From Candidatus Bathyarchaeota archaeon (GTDB taxonomy: Archaea > Thermoproteota > Bathyarchaeia > 40CM-2-53-6 > RBG-13-38-9): a stretch of 64,000 nucleotides of DNA. Positions 2,567 to 42,916 of this stretch are shown here, in pieces. The stretch is from contig CAWECG010000004.1 of NCBI GenBank assembly GCA_963807605.1, positions 1-64,000 of the forward strand. Reading direction: 5' to 3'. The notes beneath the pieces were generated by a model. That model was not told where the DNA came from, did no database searches, and saw nothing but the letters and a program-made list of their open reading frames with translations. How positions within the stretch are numbered: the stretch's first letter is position 1; each line of letters starts with the position of its first letter. Made by a program: the position numbers and the translations under genes.

Positions 2567-3136
2567 CTAGCCTCTTCTCAAAGTGCATGTCGTGCAGTGT
2601 GTTCCGCCGTAGCCACCGGTTAGGTTCCTGATGATCGATGGGTAGGCGTTGATGCCTTGCTCGTAAATATCCTTCTTATGCGGGAAGAAGCCTCCTTCAC
2701 GTTTGAGGTCTTCATAATCTTTCTTGGCTTGGTCTAGTAGTCTGCCGTATCTGACAGAGTCATTGCTCGCGCTCGATGCAAGGTTTGTAAGGACATCTTT
2801 TACGATTCGTTCAACTTCGACAGCGAGTATGCTGCCATCCCTTATGCAGAGGAAATTCGACGCATACAACATTTGTTCCAAGGTGCTGATGTTTATGATA
2901 TCGAAACCTTTCGCTTTCATCTAGTCATGCAGATTAGGTTCTTCTTTCTGTTTCTTATAGATGCCTTCAGATTCGCGTCGGTAAACCTCCATTTGACCTC
3001 TCTTCAGAAGCAGTTCCGAACCAACAACGACGCCGCTTGAGGCCAAGTTGAAGTATGTGTCGAGATGCATGTCGATCATCGGATCTCTCCTCTCGCCGGG
3101 GATAAGCGGATGATTGGGCTGATGCGCCACGCCAAC
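2567..3136 (-). pseudogene. Arginine deiminase-like (amidinotransferase fold) C-terminal remnant
   Basis: MHLDTYFN and NLTGGYGGTHC motifs. The two ORFs (2921-3130, 2567-2920) are in frame across a TAG at 2921-2923. The N-terminal part is missing. Confidence 0.75.
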
Positions 3137-3605
3137 TTAGCGCGATGATATGGGAAGTGTTTTTGCAGAGGAGGCGTTCATGCCATTCTATGAGCGCCTG
3201 CATTTATGGATTGGATCTGAGTGGCTCAATTCATGCAACAATCTTGAGGTAGCTGGTAGAAAGATAATTATTGATGAATGGATAATTATGTTATTGTCAG
3301 GCCTAGAGAAACCTCCTCGTGAAAGCGCTGTCCCTTAAGGTGGACGTTAGCGCGATTGAGGGGAGCCTGGATGCGAAGCCATAATGCACCACCCGTGAAC
3401 GAATAGGCGCATGCCAAACATACTCATCCAGGAGAGAAAGATAGAAGAGAGGTCTTCACATAGGCGCGCTGGAGTATTTGCAGTTCGGTTCTTCTTCCAC
3501 GCATATCTGGACAAATACATCGGAATGGAACCCAGAGAAAAAGCGCGCAGGGGGCCGAAAGCGGTAACGCCTGAAGATAGGCAGAAGTGAAGTGATAGGG
3601 ATCAG

Positions 3606-4448
3606 TTGTCTTTCGAAATACAGGAACTTTCGGACGTCATAAGAGTAATTGTTCTGCTGAGAATGAGAATAGGAAGGCCGGTACAGAAGACCGTCTTGAA
3701 GGACCGTATCGACAGAAGGTACGCCCGTTTTGTTCGAGTTGAGATGCGTGATCTAGACAAGGCTCTAGATGAGCTGGCTTCCGAGCGGCTCATCACCATA
3801 GACGGTGAGATGGTTCAACTAACAGAGCAGGGCACTCATCTGGCCGGGCAATGGCGAAGCCTGCTGCTAAAGCGAGAACCTATCCTCGAGGTTGTCGCAG
3901 GACTCGCTGACGGTTCCATAACAGCGCTAGTCGTCATCCTTTCATCCTTCACGGCTGGTTTAACAGTCAGCGCAACTAGCTTCACGGGTTTACTCACTAC
4001 AGCAGTCGTTGCCATAACAAACTTCTCCAGTTTTCTACTTGGCGGAATGACAGCTGACCTAGCAGACATCATGACCTTACAGACATTGATGAACTACAGT
4101 CTTAGCGACATTCCGGATAAGAAGGAGCGAGAACGTTCGCTCATCCTGGTCAAACGTTTGTTCAGTATTCTACATCGGGAGGTGACTAATTCCAATATCT
4201 CCGGAGCTGTAACCTGTAGCATCACGACATTTCTCACAGGAATTACCCCCCTCACCGTCTATCTGGTTTTACCTCCACCGCTTGGTATCATCGTGTCGCT
4301 TGGCATCGTTGGGGCTGTCGTGGGTATCTTTCTTGTACGTTATCGTTCAAAGAAAGCTAGACTAAACTGGAAGATAACGTTGCTCCAGACAGTCACAGTT
4401 ATCGTAATTGCAGTTATCGTTTCACTGCTGCTCACTAAAGTCAGATAA
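3606..4448 (+). CDS. Membrane protein: N-terminal winged-helix-like region fused to a VIT1/CCC1-like TM domain
   Basis: N-terminal DLDKALDELASERLITIDGEMVQLTEQG is wHTH-like. EVVAGLADGSIT resembles the VIT1 G..DG motif, followed by ~5 TM segments. Confidence 0.55.
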   Translation: MSFEIQELSDVIRVIVLLRMRIGRPVQKTVLKDRIDRRYARFVRVEMRDLDKALDELASERLITIDGEMVQLTEQGTHLAGQWRSLLLKREPILEVVAGLADGSITALVVILSSFTAGLTVSATSFTGLLTTAVVAITNFSSFLLGGMTADLADIMTLQTLMNYSLSDIPDKKERERSLILVKRLFSILHREVTNSNISGAVTCSITTFLTGITPLTVYLVLPPPLGIIVSLGIVGAVVGIFLVRYRSKKARLNWKITLLQTVTVIVIAVIVSLLLTKVR

Positions 4449-4504
4449 TAGAATGTGCCTCGTGTTTCTGATCGCGTTTCATTAAAGTGCTGATTTCGTT
4501 AGCA

Positions 4505-4906
4505 CGCGCTATAACTAATGCGATCATGGGGAATAAAGCGATCACATAGCTGGCCAACCCTATGCTGACCGTAGCCCCTACGACTAGACTCTCAAATATC
4601 CATAACCAACCTGTTACGAACCCAGCAAGGGGGGAGATCGTTTTGTTAAGGGTAAATATAGATGCTGCCTTCTTCTGGGAATATGGAGCTGAGTCTAGCA
4701 TAGCTGTAGGCTGTGAAGGAGACAATACCTGCAATGATTATGGATATTGTAATCGCTGGTCCGGCTAATCCGGCGGCAACCCCTGAGATAACGAATACAC
4801 CAGCGCCTATCATTGCGCCGATAGCCAACGCAGTGGCATCAAAAAGGTTTAGTGTCGTCTTCAATTTAAAATCTCTTATTCCTGATGCTATCCCATTTCT
4901 CTCCAT
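4505..4906 (-). pseudogene. APC amino-acid permease N-terminal fragment, frameshifted and truncated
   Basis: LNLFDATALAIGAMIGAGVF...YARLSSIFPEEGSIYIY continues in another frame as LAGFVTGWLW. Similarity ends near 4510. Confidence 0.8.
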
Positions 4907-4994
4907 CTGCTTTACGTTCTAAATCGATGCTAGTACGGTGGAGCGTGCGTTACTCGCATTATATCGGCGCATGAGGCCACAAAAGTTTTCGGCC

Positions 4995-5875: not shown

Positions 5876-6124
5876 ACGGTTAGTATGAATGGTGCTGCAT
5901 CCAAGTTCCTTACTGTTATGTTTACATGTTCATCTTCGTTTACAGAGACTATCTGAGGACAAAACTTATCGTATCTCTTCCCTCCAAGGTCTAGTGCGCG
6001 CGTTATTAGTGTAGGCTTCGCGTGTTCCTAAGTTATGCCGGTGCAGAAACTTTAAGCTCTATCTCGCTAAGAGGCATGATAGGCATCTTCAACGCGCGCT
6101 TCACCCTTTAAAGAGAAGTCAGCG

Positions 6125-7804
6125 ATGTTTGACTTAGCGAAAGATAATCCGATATTTTATCATGTGCTGGTTAGTGTTGTAGGTGTCGCTGCGGGCATCC
6201 TGACTTGTGCTTTCTATCTGGTATACCTGACCTTATGGTCAGAGATCACCAGAATCATAGAGTACTATAGACCCTTCGTTTTTGTTTCTGCCTTTCTAGC
6301 CTTGGGTTTGTCTTACTTACTAGTCAGACTTTTCGCAGAAACAAAGATCACAGGGAGTGGAACTCATACTGTCCTAGAGGTTTTCCACCTTAGAAATGGC
6401 GATGTGAGTTTTCGCGACGCATTGATCAAGCCCTTAGCGTCCATGTTTACCCTAGGATTCGGAGGAAGCGCTGGACCAGAGGGTCCCAGCTTGCTTCTCG
6501 GTGGGGGCGTAGCCTCGGGAATCTCAAAAAAGTTCAAAGTCAAAACAAGTTTCATGCGAAGCATATTTATCTCTGGTGCTGCTGCTGGTCTGTCCGCGAC
6601 GTTTAGAACTCCCCTGACCGGAATACTTTTCGCGTTGGAAATCCCTTATAAACGAGGATTTGAAAGGGAGACATTTATCGATGCTTCCATCGCCTCAATT
6701 GTGTCTTATCTTGTCGCAGTGACAATTCTGGGTAGTGAGAGGATTTTCAAGATTGTAGAGAATGTTCAACTATCTTTAGACAATATTCTTTTGTCTCTAC
6801 TCTTGGGGCTGCTATGCGGCGTCTATGCCCTATTTTTCGTCAAGACTTTCAATCTATTCGGAAGATTTGGATCGGAGATTAGAAAGAAAGCTGGAAGTTA
6901 CGGAATGATCGCTTTGGGTAGCATCATGTTGGGGGCAGCAGGATATTTCTCTCTTTTCAGCATTGGTGTAGGCCTGAATTTTGTCGACGCTCTCGTCTAT
7001 GGGGAAGCCATGACATTGACCTTTTTAGTCATTCTGATTCTAGTAAGGACTTTTGCAACCTGTGTAACCTTGAATTTCGGTGGTGGTGGGGGGCTCTTTT
7101 TCCCAACAATAGTTATTGGTGCAGGCATTGGTTACCTTTTCTCCACTATTTCAGGGACACCCTCGCAGGAGCTCTTTATTGCGATAGCTATAGCTGCTTT
7201 ACTGGCTGGAACGCACAAGATGCTTCTTACGCCCGTCGCTTTCATAGTTGAAACATTGGGGGGCGGTTATGCCATACCTGCCCTGCTTGCTAGCAGTGTA
7301 AGTTACTTGGTGTCGGGAAAGTCTTCGTTCTATCCCCTTCAACTTGATACAAAACTGAAGTATGAAGAGCTTGCCCTTCAAAGGTTCTACGTCGACGCGA
7401 AGAAATCGATTCCAGAACGCTTGCGTACCACTATGGCAAAGGACTTTATGACAAAGAATGTCTTAGCTCTAAACTTGGGAATGAACGTTAAAGATGCCTT
7501 AGGGAAGTTCAGTACGACACACTTCAGAGTCTTACCCGTTATAGATCAAGAATATGACGTTGTTGGATATGTGACTCTAGAAGATCTCGGACACATAAGA
7601 AAGATGCATTATGAGAAAGATATTTCAGAAATCTTGACTCATAAGCCTTTAACCGTCTATGAAGAGACTAGTCTGGAGAAAGTTGCCGATTCTATGATTG
7701 AGCGTGACGAAGACCACGTCTTCGTGACGGATAATAAGGGGAAACTCCTAGGAGTAATTGCAAGCATTGACGTGGTAAGAAAAATATTGGAGCTTTCCGC
7801 ATAA
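6125..7804 (+). CDS. CLC chloride channel/antiporter with C-terminal CBS pair
   Basis: GSGT, GSAGPEGP and GGGGGLFFP signatures; CBS domains (MAKDFMTKNV..., LLGVIASIDV). Confidence 0.92.
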   Translation: MFDLAKDNPIFYHVLVSVVGVAAGILTCAFYLVYLTLWSEITRIIEYYRPFVFVSAFLALGLSYLLVRLFAETKITGSGTHTVLEVFHLRNGDVSFRDALIKPLASMFTLGFGGSAGPEGPSLLLGGGVASGISKKFKVKTSFMRSIFISGAAAGLSATFRTPLTGILFALEIPYKRGFERETFIDASIASIVSYLVAVTILGSERIFKIVENVQLSLDNILLSLLLGLLCGVYALFFVKTFNLFGRFGSEIRKKAGSYGMIALGSIMLGAAGYFSLFSIGVGLNFVDALVYGEAMTLTFLVILILVRTFATCVTLNFGGGGGLFFPTIVIGAGIGYLFSTISGTPSQELFIAIAIAALLAGTHKMLLTPVAFIVETLGGGYAIPALLASSVSYLVSGKSSFYPLQLDTKLKYEELALQRFYVDAKKSIPERLRTTMAKDFMTKNVLALNLGMNVKDALGKFSTTHFRVLPVIDQEYDVVGYVTLEDLGHIRKMHYEKDISEILTHKPLTVYEETSLEKVADSMIERDEDHVFVTDNKGKLLGVIASIDVVRKILELSA

Positions 7805-8108
7805 GGAATCTACGCGCGCGTAATCCGTATGAAGCTCCTTCGCCACCGTAGCTACCTTAGCCGCGGCGCCAGAAGCATGCACTAGCCTAAGAAGTCGCCA
7901 TCTGACTTGTCTTGAGATTTGCTGGAAGCATTGACATGTTATCTATCTTTATTGATTAGGCCAAGTATATCCAAATCTCTCAAAGCGTTTTTCGATTTTC
8001 TGTAGCCGTGTTGTGCAGTAGATTTCCAAGACGTGGAAGCCAAAATCTAAAAGTAGATTGTGTCATTCAATTGTAACAACAAGCAATTGTCCAGCGTGAT
8101 AGCGACCT

Positions 8109-8840: not shown

Positions 8841-9121
8841 TCCTACGAGTGGTACAGATTTTTTAGCGCGGCTATTACGAGAAGGTGGTGCAGATGCATG
8901 GATTATCAAAGCAGTATCCTAGACGCAAGAATCCCACTCGCTGCACTCCTCTGCCCAATATATTTCCTGAGTCTGAGAAAGTGCAGGCTGAAGGTTTGAG
9001 CGCGCGCGCTCTACTGATGAGCGAATGTGCGCGCGTAAGCAAGTTCTTCTAACGTGCCAGCTTCCCTTTTTAGGTTCCTGGAAGGTCATACCGAAGTCGA
9101 TTAAGACGGTTTTGGCTTCAT

Positions 9122-10200
9122 TGCTGTGTTGCGCGACTAGGTTTCAGTGATGTTTTTCGCTTTTGTTGGCTGTCTTCAGGTTTCGTCTAGCCGTGTGTTG
9201 CTGTGGTTGTTTCTATCAGCATGTTGTATAGTGAGGCTTTGATCATCATCTCCTGTGCCATGTTTTGCATCGTTTTGGCTGAGACGTATTCTCCGAAGGT
9301 TCGCTTCAGCGATGAGAAGGCTGATTCAGCCATCCATCTATACCCGTAGCCATGATTGTGTTTCCAGGCTTCAGGGTCTTTGAGGTATTCTTGGGCTACG
9401 AGCTTTCTGGGCATGCATCCTCCGGCCCTGCTGGATGTGTTCTTGCGCACCTTGATGGCTGGCTCAATCCCTTTTGCGTTGAGATAGCGGAAGTTGCTTT
9501 TCATATCGTATGCTCCGTCACCAATTGCCTTGGCGACCTTACCTTTCTTGGAGGCTTCATCAACAAGCGGCTGGAGCATCCCTCCGTCACCTGTCTTCTC
9601 ATCCGTCACCTTCAAGGCGAGTATCTTCTTCCGCTTTACATCAACGGCGATATGGATCTTGAGGTATCCGCGTCTCACCTTCCATTTATGGCGTATCCAT
9701 TCGCCGCGGTTAGCCACCTTGATGCCTGATGCGTCCACCGCCAGGACTATGTCGTCGCCATAATCTTTCTCATCCAGCTTCACATCTAACCTGTTCACGC
9801 GTCTATCTATGGTTGAATAGTCAGGCACATGGATCCTTGAGTCGAATCTTCTCAGGGCTTTGAGGAATCCTTCTGTCTGCCTGTAGGGTAGGTGGAATAG
9901 CAGGTGCATGTAGCCTAGAAGCCTGATGAAGATCTCAGGGTAGACGTATTGTCCACCTTCCTTCCCAGTATTCATCTTTTCAAGCTCAATGTTCCACCTG
10001 TCAAGGATGCGTGGGTCAAGCAGGATCTCCCCACGCTTCACGAGACCCTCATTGATGCGTCTCCAATCTCTAGCAGCCAATCACAATCGTGGAATAGTTC
10101 TCTCACAGGCAATATAGATCATCCAACCACTTCCACGTCAATAAACCGAAAACTCAAACCTACATCCATAAACAAAAATGTCTAGTCATGCAACACAGCA
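9122..10200 (-). mobile_element. Complete IS5-family element with 19-bp imperfect TIRs and 8-bp target duplication
   Basis: Left TIR TGCTGTGTTGCGCGACTAG (9122-9140); right CTAGTCATGCAACACAGCA (10182-10200); GGCTTCAT duplicated at 9114-9121 and 10201-10208. Confidence 0.93.
9187..10080 (-). CDS. IS5-family DDE transposase
   Basis: W...NEGLVKRGE, PDYSTI, AVDASG, KIHIAVD, GDGAYD, Y..RWMAESAFS. Confidence 0.95.
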   Translation of the reverse strand: MAARDWRRINEGLVKRGEILLDPRILDRWNIELEKMNTGKEGGQYVYPEIFIRLLGYMHLLFHLPYRQTEGFLKALRRFDSRIHVPDYSTIDRRVNRLDVKLDEKDYGDDIVLAVDASGIKVANRGEWIRHKWKVRRGYLKIHIAVDVKRKKILALKVTDEKTGDGGMLQPLVDEASKKGKVAKAIGDGAYDMKSNFRYLNAKGIEPAIKVRKNTSSRAGGCMPRKLVAQEYLKDPEAWKHNHGYGYRWMAESAFSSLKRTFGEYVSAKTMQNMAQEMMIKASLYNMLIETTTATHG

Positions 10201-10272
10201 GGCTTCATCAGGGGCAGCAGGTCTGAAAACAGTCTTAACTTCAGGTTTCGATGCGTGCGCACACACAGGGGG

Positions 10273-12066: not shown

Positions 12067-12225
12067 TTCCTCGGGATATCTCTTCCCTAGACACTTGTTG
12101 AAGTCTGTAGCGCGCGCGGGCTTATCGTTTGCTCCTAACCAGAAAGGCTGGGAGCTTGATGCCCTGAAAGCCTTCGCTCAGGCCTGGACTTCCTGAGATA
12201 ACTTGTGGTCGTTTTCGCCATTTTA

Positions 12226-12371
12226 GTCGTCAAGAAAGTCGTCACTATCGTCGTCAAACAATAATTAGCAAAAAAAAAATTTTTTTGTATTATGCGCTGC
12301 ATGATTTCTTGTGAGCAGATGGTGACGACGATGACGATGTTGACGGATTAGTTGACGGTGAAAGTGACGAA
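12226..12371. repeat. Inverted clusters of GTCGTCA/TGACG short repeats around an A10T7 tract
   Basis: GTCGTCA at 12226, 12238, 12250; A/T tract 12270-12286; TGACG at 12323, 12332, 12341, 12353, 12365. Confidence 0.75.
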
Positions 12372-12683
12372 AACAGCGACACTGCCGAGTAGCACGCGCT
12401 GATAATGGTGAGTGGAAGTTAGATATCGTCAGAAACCAAAACAGTGATTCATCAAACAATTGGATGGCGGGTTAATAGTCACCGAAGAATGCTACTGCCA
12501 TGTTAGCGCGCGCGACCGTGTCGACAGTGAACTCACAGGGATACAGTCCCGAGGTAACGCAAGGATTCAACACACGCGGGCATTCCTAGCCGTCGAATCG
12601 CGCAGTAATGACACAATGGATTCTATTAAGCGCGTTTAATACTACATGAGACAGCGGTATTGAATCTTCTGATTAACTTGACG

Positions 12684-20298: not shown

Positions 20299-21141
20299 TT
20301 ATGTTGTCTCTTTTGGCTTGATTCCGCTGACTTTTATGCTCAAAATTGAATTTGCGAGTTCTTCTATCTCGTCGCGTTGCAGTCCTGATTTCTTGATGAT
20401 CTCCTTCGCGTTCGGGTCGTTGGATATATCTCCAATGGGAAAAGGTGTCTCGTCGACGGTCTGTATTTTGTGAAACCCTGCTTGTTGGATGGCCTTTAGG
20501 TATTCTTCTTTCTTGATGGCTCCAGCAACACAGCCAACGTATGCCTCGATAGACTCCTTTATGGCGCTGGGAAGTTCTCTCGTCAGGACTATGTCTGAGA
20601 TAATGAATCTGCCTCTTGGCTTCAACACTCTGAATGCTTCTGCAAAGACTCGCCTTTTGTCAGTTGACAGATTGATGACACAATTTGAGATGACCACGTC
20701 GATCGAGTTGTCAGCCGCAGGAAGGTTCTCGATCTCTCCGATTCTGAACTCCACATTCTCATAGTTTTCCTTCTCAGCATTTTGCCGAGCTCCTTCTATC
20801 ATCTCAGGCGTCATATCTACGCCGATGACTTTTCCCCTGTTGCCAACTTTGTTTGCGGCGAGGAAACAATCGAACCCGGCTCCCGATCCAAGATCCAGAA
20901 CCGTCTCTCCTTCTTTCAGCGACGCGATGGCAACAGGGTTTCCACAACCCAATCCCAGATTTGCACCTTCAGGGACTGCCCTAAGCTCATCGTCCGTGTA
21001 GCCTATCTTCTTGCTCAGCGTCTCCGGAAGACTGCAGCAGCTGGCGACGTCACAACAGGATCTCTCCGTTCTAGCTAGTTCTCCATATTTCTGTCGTACA
21101 ACCTTCTTGATCTGATCCTCTTTCATCCTAAACACATCCAA
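20299..21141 (-). CDS. arsM: Arsenite S-adenosylmethionine methyltransferase
   Basis: ANLGLGCGNP, LDLGSGAGFDCF, ISNCVINL, YVGCVAGA; Cys-rich N-terminus. Confidence 0.95.
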   Translation of the reverse strand: MDVFRMKEDQIKKVVRQKYGELARTERSCCDVASCCSLPETLSKKIGYTDDELRAVPEGANLGLGCGNPVAIASLKEGETVLDLGSGAGFDCFLAANKVGNRGKVIGVDMTPEMIEGARQNAEKENYENVEFRIGEIENLPAADNSIDVVISNCVINLSTDKRRVFAEAFRVLKPRGRFIISDIVLTRELPSAIKESIEAYVGCVAGAIKKEEYLKAIQQAGFHKIQTVDETPFPIGDISNDPNAKEIIKKSGLQRDEIEELANSILSIKVSGIKPKETT

Positions 21142-23202: not shown

Positions 23203-23507
23203 GCCATGGGAGGTCTATCGAAATCTCAAGAGATAGACATCGCGGCATGAAGAACAAAACGATGTTAGCCTGCTCAAAAGTTTCTATCGATTCTTTCTGA
23301 GTTTCTTGATCGAAGCCTGTAATCGCATCTGAGTCTCGCTCAGAAACATCTCTCGTGTTCGAGAGCCCTTACTACTATCACTCAGGTTTACACTCTGACT
23401 TGTTGTGTTCTAAACGCGCGCGCTAAAACTAGTGCGAATTCAAAGTATTGTCGTACAGCAAGAATTATATATTTAAGAACGTTAATCTGGAGCGCGACTG
23501 GTAGCAG

Positions 23508-23951: not shown

Positions 23952-25025
23952 GTGCCGATGGAAAAAGAGACTGGATTAGGATGGATTGAGAAGCTTCTGG
24001 CTTTGTGGGTAATAATCTGTATTGTTATTGGCCTTTCTCTGGGCAAATATCTACCTGAATTCAGTAAACATCTTGAGATCGGTATTCCAATTGGTTTGTT
24101 TCTGATGATTTACCCAGCAATGACAAAAATAGAGCTAGAGGAGCTTAAGGAGGCTATTAGGAGCAAGAGACAGGTTGGAATAATCGCGTTCTTCAACTAT
24201 GCCATTAATCCCTTCTTGCTCTACGCGTTGGGATTCGTTTTCTTTGAAAAAATCCTTCCTTACTTCGGTCTGATTACATCCGAAGCTGCAAGGTACCTTT
24301 GGACAGGATTGATCCTGCTGGGGGTCGCTCCATGCATTGCCATGGTCCTCGTTTGGACTGATCTTGCCAAAGGAAACGGACCGCTTGGAATAGTGCTTAT
24401 GGCTTGGAACTCAATAATCCAAGTTATCACAACCCCACTCTATATCGCATTACTAGTGGGCACATACATAGCCATAGACATATTCTCCATAGGTCAGAGT
24501 GTTTTGCTATACTTGGGCCTCCCACTACTATTTGGGGTCATAACTCGCAGAGAAGTGATAAAACGCAAATCCGAAGAATGGCTGAACAAGGAGTTGATAC
24601 CGTACTATAATGTCATACAGTTGCTTGCGCTTCTTTTTACTATGGTTGTTATGTTTTCCCTGAAAGGTGGAGTAATAATAGATAATCCAAATCTCATTTG
24701 GCAGATGGCTATACCTGTGGTCATTTTCTTCTTCCTGCTGTTCAACCTTGTCTATTTCACAACTAGACGTTTAGGCTACAACTATGAAGATTCCACCACG
24801 ATGGGATTCCACTGTACGGGCAGAAACTTTGAATTGGCCATTGCAATAGCGCTAACTGCATTCGCATCTATGCCAATGGTCGCAGTCTCTACAGTAGTGG
24901 GTCCCCTCATTGAGATTCCGGTAATGCTCACAATAGTGTGGATAGCCCTCAGAAGAAGAAGACAACTTGAAATGAAAATCGAATTACCGCCCACCAAGAA
25001 AGTCGGAAAGGGCGGAATCTGTTAA
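23952..25025 (+). CDS. acr3: Acr3 arsenite efflux transporter
   Basis: MIYPAM, APCIAMVLVW, GRNFELAIA, VGPLIEIPVM. Confidence 0.95.
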   Translation: MPMEKETGLGWIEKLLALWVIICIVIGLSLGKYLPEFSKHLEIGIPIGLFLMIYPAMTKIELEELKEAIRSKRQVGIIAFFNYAINPFLLYALGFVFFEKILPYFGLITSEAARYLWTGLILLGVAPCIAMVLVWTDLAKGNGPLGIVLMAWNSIIQVITTPLYIALLVGTYIAIDIFSIGQSVLLYLGLPLLFGVITRREVIKRKSEEWLNKELIPYYNVIQLLALLFTMVVMFSLKGGVIIDNPNLIWQMAIPVVIFFFLLFNLVYFTTRRLGYNYEDSTTMGFHCTGRNFELAIAIALTAFASMPMVAVSTVVGPLIEIPVMLTIVWIALRRRRQLEMKIELPPTKKVGKGGIC

Positions 25026-25117
25026 TCTATAAGCAAACCGAAAAGAGTTCACAATATGATGAGCAAGCGCGCGCTAACATAACGATTATCAAAGAATGAA
25101 CTCGGAGAAACAGAAAA

Positions 25118-25264
25118 ATGAAAAATAGAAAAATAAAGAGAATCGTTAGAGAAGGTTACGCCAAGCTCGCTAAGCAGCCCAGTTCCTGTTGCACTCCTAC
25201 TAGTACATGTCGCGGAAGCGTTGACTTGGTCGAGGATATCAGTAAGAAGAACGCGCGCGCTTAG
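25118..25264 (+). pseudogene. arsM: 5' fragment of a second arsM, truncated at a (CG)n tract
   Basis: MKNRKIKRIVREGYAKLAKQPSSCCTPTSTC...ISKK aligns by eye with the ArsM N-terminus MKEDQIKKVVRQKYGELARTERSCC...LSKK, then runs into ACGCGCGCGC and a TAG. Confidence 0.8.
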
Positions 25265-25348
25265 GCTCCAGCGCTCACTAAATTCAAATCCAGAATAGTT
25301 GTATTATAAACACCTGCAACTGTAAGCCGCCTTAGGGGGATCCACAAA

Positions 25349-25708
25349 ATGGATAAAACGAAGCACGAACCCGCAGAGAAAAAGCAACCAGAAGCTACGC
25401 GCTTGGTAATATTCTTGCCGGGAATAGAGAGATCGACTGAGAAAACACTTCGAGTCGCCGCTGTGACCGACGAGGGAAAGATCGATACTACCAGAGATGA
25501 CACCGTAGAACTTTCAATAAACAATGAGGGTCGCATGCGCTTCAAGGACTCATCAAAAAATGTGCAACTCAAATTGATTAATGGAGAAGCGAATGCGACG
25601 GTTATATCAGATCAGTCACATGGAGTCTCAATCTTCAAAGCCAGGTGGATAGGTGGGAAGACACCTCTTCAGCCAATACAAGTAACTTCTATCTTTGTTC
25701 CTGGATGA
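25349..25708 (+). CDS. Hypothetical beta-rich protein upstream of arsC
   Basis: 119 aa ORF co-oriented with arsC, 30 bp upstream of it. Confidence 0.55.
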   Translation: MDKTKHEPAEKKQPEATRLVIFLPGIERSTEKTLRVAAVTDEGKIDTTRDDTVELSINNEGRMRFKDSSKNVQLKLINGEANATVISDQSHGVSIFKARWIGGKTPLQPIQVTSIFVPG

Positions 25709-25738
25709 GTATGTTTGGCCCATAGTTGGTGAGCAAGT

Positions 25739-26149
25739 ATGAAGCGACTGTTATTCGTGTGTGTCGAGAACGCTGGGAGGAGTCAAATGGCTGAGGCTTT
25801 CGCCAATCACTATGGAAAGGGAAAGGTAGTTGCGTCTAGCGCTGGTGTGAAATTGGCTGAAAGGGTGAATCCTCTGGTCGTTGATGTGATGAAAGAGAAA
25901 GGAATCGATATATCTGGAAACAAGCCAAAGCTGCTGAGCCCAAAGATGGCGGAAGTGGTTGATCAAATCATATCGATGGGCTGCAGCGTGGAAGAGGTCT
26001 GCCCGGCAATACGCGCGCGCGTCAGGAATGTAGTGGATTGGGATCTAGAAGATCCGAAAGGAAAGCCGATGGAGAAGGTTCGAGAGATAAGAAACGAAGT
26101 AGAGCGAAAAGTGTTGAGGTTACTCGCTGAAATCGAAGAGCCCGACTGA
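25739..26149 (+). CDS. arsC: Thioredoxin-type (LMW-PTP fold) arsenate reductase
   Basis: FVCVENAGRSQMAE, MGCSVEEVCP, WDLEDP. Confidence 0.93.
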   Translation: MKRLLFVCVENAGRSQMAEAFANHYGKGKVVASSAGVKLAERVNPLVVDVMKEKGIDISGNKPKLLSPKMAEVVDQIISMGCSVEEVCPAIRARVRNVVDWDLEDPKGKPMEKVREIRNEVERKVLRLLAEIEEPD

Positions 26150-36767: not shown

Positions 36768-36964
36768 AAGCTCTATCGGAGTTCTGGAAGTACACAGATA
36801 GCTGATATGTCTTTGCAGGTCAACATCGAGTGCGTCTCCCAGTCCGAACGCGCTTGGCAAGCAACTTTAGGAGGAGCACGTGCTCCTCCCTTTTTTCATA
36901 TTACTGATCAGATATCACTGTGCTTTTCCGGTTTGAATTCTACGCGCTCGCTTTTTGTGGCGGA

Positions 36965-37081
36965 CCGGGCGGAGTCGTCCTACCAACTAACAAGCTTGAG
37001 ATCCTAACACCCTACCTAACATCAGCAGGACTAGTCGCTGCGGTATCCGCAGTTGTAGTGGTTAAGAGAAGAAGAGCCTAG
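36965..37081 (+). pseudogene. Orphan C-terminal membrane-anchor module, copy 1
   Basis: PGGVVLPTNKLEILTPYLTSAGLVAAVSAVVVVKRRRA*. Confidence 0.7.
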
Positions 37082-37148: not shown

Positions 37149-37409
37149 CTAGCGCGCGCGTGGTCGGCCTTTTTTGGCCGCTTCCTCATATCTCTTCAGT
37201 TCGCTCAGAGTTTTGCCTTTGTTGTTGTGGTAGTCGGGGTTGTTTGGATTTAGTTTGATTGCGATTTCGTACTCACTGTCCGCTTCCCCAAATCTCTCCA
37301 GGTAGATCAAAGTGTTGCCTTTGTTGTTGTGGTAGTCGGGGTTGTTTGGATTTAGGGAGATTGCCATGTCGTACTCCTCAACCGCTTCCTCAAATCTCTG
37401 CTCACACAA
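37149..37409 (-). pseudogene. TPR-repeat fragment
   Basis: Two 34-aa TPR units (102-nt period; LNPNNPDYHNNKG); ends in a (CG)n tract. Confidence 0.75.
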
Positions 37410-37771: not shown

Positions 37772-37888
37772 CCTGTCGGCGGGCTAGTGACGCCGATGAA
37801 CAAGCTTGAGATTCTAACACCCTACTTAGCGTTAGCAGGACTTATAGCATTATCAGCGGTTGTAGTGGCTAAGAAAAAAAGAGCTTAG
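37772..37888 (+). pseudogene. Orphan C-terminal membrane-anchor module, copy 2
   Basis: PVGGLVTPMNKLEILTPYLALAGLIALSAVVVAKKKRA*. Confidence 0.7.
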
Positions 37889-37942: not shown

Positions 37943-38050
37943 GCGGCCGTGGTCTAGTCTGGTCTAGGACGGGAGATAAAGAACTTTGCCCGAGCTTCCC
38001 ATTCTAGGAGAGAGCTCTTAGCCCGGGTCCGAATCCCGGCGGCCGCACCA
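37943..38050 (+). tRNA. tRNA-Gly(CCC) with two introns (30/31: 37976-37994; 37/38: 38002-38012) and encoded CCA
   Basis: Acceptor GCGGCCG/CGGCCGC+ACCA, D-stem GTCT/GGAC, anticodon stem GGAGC/GCTCT with CCC after removing both inserts, T-stem CCGGG/CCCGG; BHB-like motifs at both introns. Confidence 0.9.
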
Positions 38051-38571
38051 TTCTCCTGCGCATTGACGAGCGGATTAGTGAGCTTCAGGAGTTCTCGCAC
38101 TATCTGTACGGCACCATTTTTCTTGCATATTCGGATTCACATAGTTAGAGTCTCACAAGCGGATCCTGCCTATGCCAAGGAGCAAAAATCAGATCGATTA
38201 TCTGCAAAGGTTAATTGGAAAGAGAGATGATTAGCTTAATGACCTTGGGCCATAAATCACTGATCGAATGGACTGATTCAACATGAAATCTTGCCACTCG
38301 GTGTACTAGATACGTAGCACGACTATGAAGTCCTGCGGAGAATTCTGATAATCTGTGTTGCCAAGGGTGACTGGTTTGATCCACACGTCGAACTCGATTA
38401 TCAATCCTTTGTCAGCGTCGACAATTGAACCACTGGATTCTGTATCCGTTTCTAGAACCAAGATTCCTCGATTCCCTTTTGTCCGCCATGAGTGAGCCGA
38501 GTCTTCAGTCTCGTCTGCTAGTTCAGAGAAATATCTTCAATGCCCGCCAAGAATCAACTTGCGCTGTTTTC

Positions 38572-41495: not shown

Positions 41496-41601
41496 AGCAG
41501 CACCTTTTCTTGAAACGTTACATAGCCTCTCTCGTTTCCCAATTCAACATGCGCGCGTTCAAAGATGATTTAATCGGTCATAATATGTGTTACGCGCGCG
41601 C

Positions 41602-42727
41602 TAGCCTCTTGCAATATTCTTGGGCTTAACATGAAGATGTATACGTGTTTTTGATCATAAGATCGATGAGCTTTACACCCACTCATGCCGTTTCTGGTGA
41701 AAAAGAAGTGAGCGAGTGTAAGGCTCTGTATGATCTGTTTCAGGCTTTGGATTTAACGTTTGTAGAACAAGTCTTAGAAAGAAGCTATGGAAGAAGAAGC
41801 AGCGTCGGCAGACCCCATAGAAATTTACTTGGAATGTTCAAAGCAGAGCTTGTCAAACGGCTAAGACACATAGAAAGCTACGAGGAACTATACCGACTTC
41901 TATGGAGCGACGGTGAACTCTGCAAACTCTGCGACATCAAGGAATCAGAGAATCCATATCACCCATCAATACTTCTGAGGTTTCGACGTAGAATAGGCCC
42001 TCAAGGATTTCACCGCCTCATGAACCGTCTGATCAAACAGCTTGACCACATGGACATTCTGGACTCTGAAATCCTAGCGTTAGACGTCACATTCATCAAA
42101 GCTTACAGTCGAAGAGATCCTCACAATACCCAGTGTGGATTATCCGATTCTGAAGCCAGATTACGAAAACAAGGTAGAAACGTGATCTTAGGCTACGGCA
42201 TACACCTTGCTGTAGACACCATCAGCGAGATGCCGCGGGCAGTCACCATAGAACCTGCAAATGTAAATGAGAAAAAAGTTGCACCCCACCTCCTCCATAA
42301 AGCATTGAAGAAGAAACATAGGTGGAAGAGCATGACTGCAGACTCACAATACTCCAGCGAAGCTTTCAGAGACAAGGCAAGATCTATGGGCATAGAACCA
42401 ATCATACCTTACCCTAGAAACCAGATGAAGGGCAAACAGGTTCTACGAATCGACCGGAAGTTCCGCTCACACGGACCTGCCCGTCTGAAACAACTGTATA
42501 AACGTCGATCCTCAGTGGAGAGAACATTCTCAAGACTCAAGACACACTTCGGATTGTCTCAGCTTCGAACACGCGGCCTAAGAAACGTCATATCACATGT
42601 ACTTCTCTGTCTGCTGGCTCTACTGGCAACTGCCTTATCCGCGATCAAGCACGGACACATCGATAAAATGCGGTCACCAATCCAGTTCACAAAATTAACA
42701 CAGAAAATATAATATTGCAAGAAGCTC
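41602..42727 (+). mobile_element. IS element (DDE, IS4/IS5-superfamily-like) with ~16-bp TIRs, inserted in a (CG)n tract
   Basis: AGCCTCTTGCAATATT (41603-41618) vs AATATTGCAAGAAGCT (42711-42726); GCGC on both flanks as probable target duplication. Confidence 0.85.
41645..42712 (+). CDS. DDE transposase
   Basis: ALDVTFI, GYGIHLAVD, ADSQY, YKRRSSVERTFSRLK. Confidence 0.93.
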   Translation: MFLIIRSMSFTPTHAVSGEKEVSECKALYDLFQALDLTFVEQVLERSYGRRSSVGRPHRNLLGMFKAELVKRLRHIESYEELYRLLWSDGELCKLCDIKESENPYHPSILLRFRRRIGPQGFHRLMNRLIKQLDHMDILDSEILALDVTFIKAYSRRDPHNTQCGLSDSEARLRKQGRNVILGYGIHLAVDTISEMPRAVTIEPANVNEKKVAPHLLHKALKKKHRWKSMTADSQYSSEAFRDKARSMGIEPIIPYPRNQMKGKQVLRIDRKFRSHGPARLKQLYKRRSSVERTFSRLKTHFGLSQLRTRGLRNVISHVLLCLLALLATALSAIKHGHIDKMRSPIQFTKLTQKI

Positions 42728-42916
42728 GCGCGTTATGTCTTGGCGGAGCTTCGCCTCAGACAGGGGTCTGCCATAGTGCTGGTGATATTTGGCCAAGATA
42801 GTCTATCGATCGACCCCTTCACCGTCCGACAGGAGCGGCTTAAGGATGTACTCAAGGCGCGCTGGAATATATGCGCTAGGGGACGCTGAATGATAACTGA
42901 AGAATTCTGAAATAGG

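Follow-up and report, generated by a model that had tools for sequence, protein, structure and literature searches.

The window analysed here is the first 64 kb (64,000 nt) of contig C4 in an archaeal assembly of 2.65 Mb and five contigs, and its G+C content is ~47%. Around position 25,000 it carries, in this order, the ACR3 gene, a short GC tract (T0, 25065-25075, core 25067-25074) that lies 40 nt past the ACR3 stop codon, a 176-nt piece of an arsM locus (25075-25250, forward strand), a further tract (T1, 25251-25262), a 5'-shortened copy of a repeated module (25263-25719, forward strand) containing a 119-aa ORF (25349-25708), and an arsC gene of the LMW phosphatase type (25739-26149, forward strand). 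An intact resident arsM of 280 aa is encoded on the reverse strand at 20299-21141. The tracts are runs of alternating G and C. Their most frequent version, with 106 copies in the genome, is A(GC)4T, a palindrome of 10 nt; this form is often preceded by T and followed by A, so that it becomes a TA-flanked 12-nt palindrome.

An arsM gene broken between codons 44 and 45

The ORF at 25118-25264 encodes 48 aa, and its last four codons and stop codon are supplied by the tract. When compared with the intact 274-aa ArsM of G001, a relative of the same genus, it aligned over residues 1-44 with 57% identity (E = 3e-17), and it was 49% identical to the ArsM of another relative (G007). The N-terminal segment of ArsM with its conserved cysteine pair is present in the ORF. 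The SAM-binding Rossmann methyltransferase domain is absent from it, as there was no Pfam hit and nothing downstream matches. The ORF is an ArsM fragment and not a functional member of the family, as inferred from sequence alone. Against the resident ArsM the alignment covered residues 5-44 with only 43% identity, indicating that the resident gene is not the source of the fragment.

DNA colinearity with the G001 arsM locus began at about 25073-25075, at the right edge of T0, continued through a 44-nt leader and codons 1-44, and stopped after 25250, which is the first base of codon 45. The original prediction that a second arsM stops matching exactly where a tract starts (25251) therefore held. 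The 12 bases of T1 matched neither the G001 arsM nor the copies of the module on contigs C1 and C3, and homology to the module started at 25263, with 98% identity to C1:353671-354131 and 91% to C3:584338-584765. These two copies have in common ~130 nt further upstream, without a tract there, and the G001 copy of the module was uninformative for this upstream part. Because the arsM piece is short relative to G001 and the module is short relative to its two paralogues, T1 joins two sequences that had both been cut. On C1 the module extends from one tract to another, and the final 34 nt of the window copy are part of a dispersed repeat. Note that this ~34-nt motif (25686-25719; 3404-3458) is common to the module end and to a 333-bp repeat described below, and is also present in the relative G002.

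In G001, ACR3 and arsM are separated by three ORFs (~1.7 kb), in place of which the window has 92 nt and a tract, and GCGCGC was absent from both G001 stretches examined in this region. No tract was found at the break position in the intact arsM of G001, of G007 or of the resident copy. Filler at a joint would be expected to consist of non-parental bases between two flanks, each of which stays colinear with a separate reference as far as the joint, and to be missing from the unbroken sequence. T1 meets the former expectation. The latter is met by the unbroken arsM of all three sources and by the arsC and spacer comparisons described below. The tract bases are thus found neither in intact arsM nor in the paralogues of the module to which it was joined.

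A search with intact ArsM located the next piece of arsM on contig C3 (C3:584181-584288, 108 nt, approximately codons 44-81), which was 86% identical to the G001 arsM DNA with one 4-nt deletion. A relic of the palindrome, altered by one transition, directly precedes this piece, a perfect A(GC)4T directly follows it, and the C3 copy of the module with the 119-aa ORF lies next to the piece. The first five bases of the C3 piece repeat those with which arsM ends in the window piece, suggesting one break point with a 5-nt overlap. An arsM that is intact in G001 is accordingly broken between codons 44 and 45 in this genome; its first 176 nt stayed beside ACR3, the next 108 nt lie on another contig, and both pieces are bracketed by tracts. 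The overlap is too small to prove that the two pieces originated from one gene. Independent arsM breaks at a hot spot remain possible, and the 5 nt might equally well reflect a target-site duplication made by a mobile element.

Tracts were also present inside sequence that is otherwise colinear with a reference. The arsC gene has an in-frame 10-nt tract (26011-26021), where seven codons replace five, giving a net gain of 6 nt with the reading frame kept; the five-codon form is common to a paralogue and to the orthologue in G027, neither of which has the tract. In two pairs of 90%-identical paralogues, 6 nt were replaced by a tract of 9-10 nt, and homology resumed on both sides. No flanking duplication was found at these three small replacements, where 4-7 nt were lost instead, nor at the tract-bounded modules 12110-12515 and 25075-25250. 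The spacer between an MtrA-like gene and arsR was colinear with the orthologous G001 spacer apart from 8-9 extra bases of a tract (23414-23424) that is missing from G001. Tracts were likely gained rather than lost, although this polarity rests on parsimony and few outgroups.

Tract distribution and the other gene remnants

In the window, 51 copies of GCGCGC were observed against 9.9 expected. Genome-wide, alternating GC runs numbered 768 at 6 nt or longer and 320 at 8 nt or longer, and the other all-GC 8-mers had 7-37 copies each. By a crude gene call, 76% of the 320 tracts of at least 8 nt are intergenic. All runs of at least 7 nt in the window lie before 42.9 kb. The first 43 kb is a patchwork of unrelated single genes, almost without synteny to G001 or to four other relatives, whereas runs of 7 nt or longer are lacking from ~47 to 64 kb, a region colinear with relatives; in this syntenic 17-kb core part, intergenic spacers are as numerous, yet no such tract occurs. 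Several tracts lie 9-15 nt past the stop codons of intact genes. Tract neighbours within 250 nt of each other numbered 42 of 320 against 19.7 under uniform placement; this count was not corrected for intergenic space, and we do not take it as evidence. One tract found in a conserved context, C3:844158, merely belongs to a duplicated segment.

Some tracts were altered, mostly by C-to-T or G-to-A transitions at CG, as seen at 12506-12514 versus C3:169449-169457 and in genome-wide counts. Such transition-biased decay would fit cytosine methylation of the tract. This example lies at one end of a 406-bp non-coding module (12110-12515) that is framed by two 9-nt tracts and shares 93% identity with C3:169056-169457. 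A gene for a CLC chloride channel with CBS domains (6015-7807) is likewise duplicated (C1:217023-218813, 98.9% identity); tracts lie 0-12 nt beyond the ends of the copies, at offsets that are unlike between the copies.

The relation between tracts and junctions was assessed across the whole genome. Where a paralogous alignment reached a tract of 8 nt or longer, it ended within 3 nt of the tract in 69 of 75 cases (92%) and spanned it in the other 6, compared with 26% for random intergenic 9-nt sites and 10% for random sites. Self-BLAST alignment ends fell within 3 nt of such a tract in 3.5% of cases against 0.18% of random positions, with a sharp peak at 0-3 nt. A screen for candidate truncation points by paralogy placed 5 of 154 within 5 nt of a tract, as compared with 21 of 3776 (odds ratio 6, p = 0.003; p = 0.04 when set against stop codons alone). 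This screen was noisy owing to domain-sharing proteins and the enrichment was modest. Tracts mark a subset of truncations, and most truncated genes are not at tracts.

The original prediction had rested on four truncated genes, of which arsM is one. The remnant of an APC-family permease gene (4444-4918, reverse strand; 4649-4918 plus a frameshifted 4444-4737) carries one frameshift and covers only ~130 N-terminal residues out of ~430. Alignments with five intact APC homologues end at 4513-4528, 2-17 nt from 4500-4511, which is a TA-flanked 12-nt palindrome with one transition. The genome contains 19 copies of this variant, whereas shuffled 10-mers average 1.3, and we therefore take 4500-4511 to be a decayed tract, as is very likely. 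The TPR gene piece (37149-37409, reverse strand) is truncated at both ends. Its ORF (37152-37409, TPR by Pfam) loses the repeat consensus near 37183, ~22 nt short of the tract at 37152-37160, and continues through that tract (its tail crosses 37151-37161) to a stop codon at 37149-37151. The pseudogene of the arginine-deiminase family (2570-3136, reverse strand) retains the part matching residues 249-436 of a homologue that is 437 aa long, and at a position (2921-2923) that is Tyr in homologues it reads an in-frame TAG. It starts exactly at 3136, and the GC at 3138 is only a 5-nt run, which forms the conserved end of a repeated element 333 bp in length (3138-3470, forward strand). This junction is therefore with the end of a repeat element and not with a free tract.

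Accordingly, the claims that the APC remnant ends at 4501-4510 and that the TPR fragment ends ~20 nt from the tract at 37152 both held, the former with a relic instead of a perfect palindrome; for the deiminase remnant, the coordinate held, with the end of a repeat in place of a free tract. A GC run of at least 5 nt is found within 4 nt of three of the four break points (uniform expectation 2.6% per point), and none of the 35 intact genes in the first 43 kb has a start or stop codon within 5 nt of such a run. When only strict runs (6 nt or longer) were considered, the arsM (3 nt) and TPR (23 nt) break points alone were near one. The four examples had been chosen after the fact. The broader claim that tracts sit at rearrangement junctions is supported independently of them by the 69 of 75 alignment ends and by the reference comparisons at T0 and T1, and it is this unbiased genome-wide test, not the four picked examples, that makes the pattern convincing.

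Several other features lie close to the TPR piece. Two fragments, 36967-37080 and 37799-37883, encode a C-terminal hydrophobic anchor with a basic tail resembling archaeosortase sorting signals, and such fragments recur at no fewer than five other loci. A one-mismatch tract (36942-36952) lies 15 nt before the former fragment. At 37943-38052 on the forward strand there is a tRNA-like gene with an acceptor stem, D and T arms, an internal insert (intron-bearing) and a CCA end, and a 6-nt GC run abuts its 5' end. Note that ARAGORN and Rfam gave no hits in the window, including this tRNA-like gene.

Two kinds of repeated element are associated with tracts. An insertion sequence of the IS5/IS1182 type (41592-42733, forward strand; transposase 41645-42712 by Pfam) sits inside a tract, and all seven of its copies have half-tracts on both sides, typically 6 + 6 nt. 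Half-tracts of this size would result if the element entered an 8-nt tract and duplicated 4 bp, suggesting that the element uses the tract and is not its source. The 333-bp repeat begins and ends with short GC runs. Its left end was counted at least 6 times in the genome and its right end ~10 times, copies occur in G002 and G003, and on contig C5 one left-end copy is followed directly by a Y1 transposase domain. Both elements likely are users of tracts rather than their source. A different IS5-family element (9120-10201, DDE_Tnp_1) is present in nine copies of 99.8-99.9% identity without flanking tracts.

A proposed scar of break rejoining, its difficulties and its rivals

On balance we favour, with moderate confidence, the reading that the four objects are real pseudogene pieces and that the GC tracts are scars of breakage and rejoining instead of earlier sites. 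In this view, A(GC)4T would be written de novo where ends are rejoined, by an enzyme that has not been identified. Each end of a double-strand break would gain a short self-complementary GC tail, and the tails of any two ends would pair and be sealed into one A(GC)4T-like unit. At arsM, the break was probably staggered: one such break in one arsM gene may have had both ends filled in, after which each end was joined elsewhere. An identical tail on every end would make unrelated fragments joinable, which would produce the patchwork of single-gene modules and pieces seen in the first 43 kb. As one reading frame of the TA-flanked palindrome contains a stop codon on either strand, truncated ORFs would end a few codons inside it. 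The 6-15-nt spread of tract lengths fits out-of-register pairing of self-complementary tails. The fixed modal length, A(GC)4T in 106 copies, speaks against untemplated synthesis and probably for a template or a measured product. Copies decayed by transitions, insertion sequences lying in tracts and copies in 12 other assemblies are signs that the tracts are real and of some age.

Some observations count against the scar reading. No enzyme was found, and five candidates did not co-occur with tract-rich genomes; in addition, ~22 nt of unexplained sequence separate the TPR end from its tract, and the deiminase joint belongs to a repeat element. The uniform modal length, the short arsM overlap that would suit a target-site duplication as well, the majority of truncated genes away from tracts and the inference of polarity by parsimony also count on this side. 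We tested co-distribution against the tract counts in 60 relatives. Copies of the 10-mer are patchy among these, with 119 in G001, 83 in G052, 63 in G003, 60 in G050 and 0 in two g5 genomes. Twelve other assemblies of different genera have 16-119 copies against 0-6 for a control word, and sister genera have no tracts. The IS5-like transposase was rejected as a determinant since it is not co-distributed with tract-rich genomes, and so was the Y1 (RAYT-type) transposase, whose PF01797 domain was found in 11 of 61 genomes without following tract density. Neither transposase was found in the tract-rich G003, G004, G007, G009, G010, G013 and G050; both are present in the tract-poor G012, and Y1 also in the tract-poor G006 and G058. 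Ku is present here beside a LigD-type polymerase, and neither was found in tract-rich relatives. Of two primase-like genes, one (C3:316908-317684) is a syntenic core gene without tract co-distribution, and the other (C3:72237-73133) is full length only in this genome (G000), G001 and the tract-poor G031. A template RNA linked to the primase-like gene was searched for in this genome and not found, nor was a reverse transcriptase found; canonical PriS is present. Note that the relatives are few and mutually related, and that fragmented assemblies lose repeats, so that negative results on co-distribution are weak.

Separately from the question of a determinant, the genes for Ku and the LigD-type primase-polymerase domain lie side by side at C1:590569-592249 (L024). 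Among the 60 relatives, Ku occurs only in another family (f2), the closest being 65-66% identical, and this distribution suggests that the pair may possibly have been acquired horizontally. Near the primase-like core gene (L026), a gene that is conserved upstream of it in G001, G002, G005 and G006 is replaced by unrelated sequence at C3:317685-317760, and a 10-nt tract lies 55 nt before the primase-like ORF.

The main rival holds that tracts are special sites that existed earlier, either fragile sites prone to Z-DNA or cruciform formation or a recombinase core as in cassette arrays, and that they anchored deletions and exchanges. In its favour, tract-bounded modules retain their tracts where they recur elsewhere (12110-12515 versus C3:169056), the 119-aa ORF module on C1 runs from tract to tract, two unrelated IS families lie inside tracts, indicating that the sequence is recognisable or accessible, and successive tract-anchored deletions could shorten both flanks without new synthesis. 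However, there is no tract in the orthologous G001 spacer or at the break in intact arsM, and arsC and the two 90%-identical paralogue pairs show a tract replacing a few bases with homology on both sides. Moreover, the tracts in different copies of one duplicated segment are shifted by 5-20 nt relative to one another, which is not expected of a fixed crossover, and a recombination site should be present in both partners beforehand, which the intact arsM and the fuller module copies, all without a tract, do not satisfy. We thus regard this rival as unlikely, and grade likewise the proposal that tracts are the ends or excision footprints of a mobile element, such as a GC-palindromic transposon, with the truncations resulting from insertions and adjacent deletions. 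The 5-nt overlap of the arsM pieces does resemble a target-site duplication, the GC runs of the 333-bp repeat adjoin T/A, one copy of a Y1 transposase is linked to this repeat, and footprints of inverted-repeat elements are inherently palindromic. On the other hand, the IS5-like and Y1 transposases are not co-distributed with tract-rich genomes (a weak absence, since insertion sequences are often lost in fragmented assemblies), the IS5-like half-tracts point to an element that uses the tract and does not supply it, and no flanking duplication accompanies the two tract-bounded modules or the three small replacements.

Coincidence is much less plausible than either of these. If tracts were ordinary intergenic signals, associated with terminators or promoters and therefore near any gene end, their mostly intergenic placement (76% at 8 nt or longer) and the several tracts 9-15 nt past intact stop codons would be accounted for. 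But no intact start or stop in the first 43 kb is within 5 nt of a run while three break points are, the 92% of alignment ends exceeds the 26% of the intergenic control, and tracts of at least 7 nt are lacking from the syntenic core, as are tracts from sister genera. An artefact, namely linker-like sequence at chimeric joins made in the library or assembly, is suggested by a fixed 10-nt palindrome between unrelated sequences, which resembles a synthetic linker. Against it stand 12 other assemblies with 16-119 copies, the existence of decayed copies, the seven IS copies inserted in tracts and the preserved arsC reading frame; it is practically ruled out, as far as this can be said without read data.

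Returning to the scar reading, it has a bolder version, in which some Bathyarchaeia would have a dedicated end-joining route that writes the GC decamer on any broken end, possibly from a template, and that repairs the genome and also shatters and reshuffles genes into accessory islands made of single-gene modules and gene pieces. The evidence leaves us rather more inclined to doubt this version than to accept it. Template-free joining of breaks in archaea is largely unknown, and a repair route leaving a fixed scar would, if true, be a new mechanism. The tracts would then be a readable record of past breaks and fusions in an abundant, uncultured group, in which gene loss, gene capture and the assembly of islands could be followed at single-base resolution. 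The evidence at arsM is unusually clear, with an intact orthologue and two successive pieces on different contigs, each sealed by a scar.

Comparison with known joining and repeat systems

The filler left by end joining, whether classical or mediated by polymerase theta, and the N and P nucleotides of V(D)J joints are random, copied from nearby or palindromic to the flank. The tracts resemble such filler in that a few non-parental bases lie exactly between two reference-colinear segments, often with a few bases lost or duplicated, and are unlike it in being one self-complementary unit at hundreds of joints. In Saccharolobus islandicus, the archaeal replicative primase PriSL carries out microhomology-mediated end joining through terminal transfer, primer extension and annealing, and yields small insertions and deletions (PMC12019639). 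Unlike the tracts, no fixed filler sequence was reported there. Telomerase heals broken ends, and interstitial telomere repeats are inserted at breaks. A defined short repeat is added to ends regardless of their sequence in this case too; however, the ends carrying tracts are rejoined rather than capped, and no reverse transcriptase or template RNA was found in this genome.

REP and BIME elements in bacteria are associated with RAYT (Y1) transposases. As short palindromic repeats with hundreds of mostly intergenic copies, the tracts meet the usual description of REP-type elements, and like them they are landing sites for insertion sequences and lie at rearrangement joints. They differ from REP/BIME in being 10 nt long without a loop, in lying inside genes at breaks where few bases were lost, and in the lack of co-occurrence with Y1. 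Integron gene cassettes are similar in that single-gene modules are separated by a short imperfect palindrome (attC). Unlike attC, the tract is missing from the parents at the crossover, the modules are cut at arbitrary internal positions, and no integrase dependence was seen in the window. A full-text literature search found no description of such tracts in archaea. Among the nearest mechanisms, namely end-joining filler, PriSL joining, telomerase healing and REP elements, none leaves one fixed self-complementary unit at internal joints.
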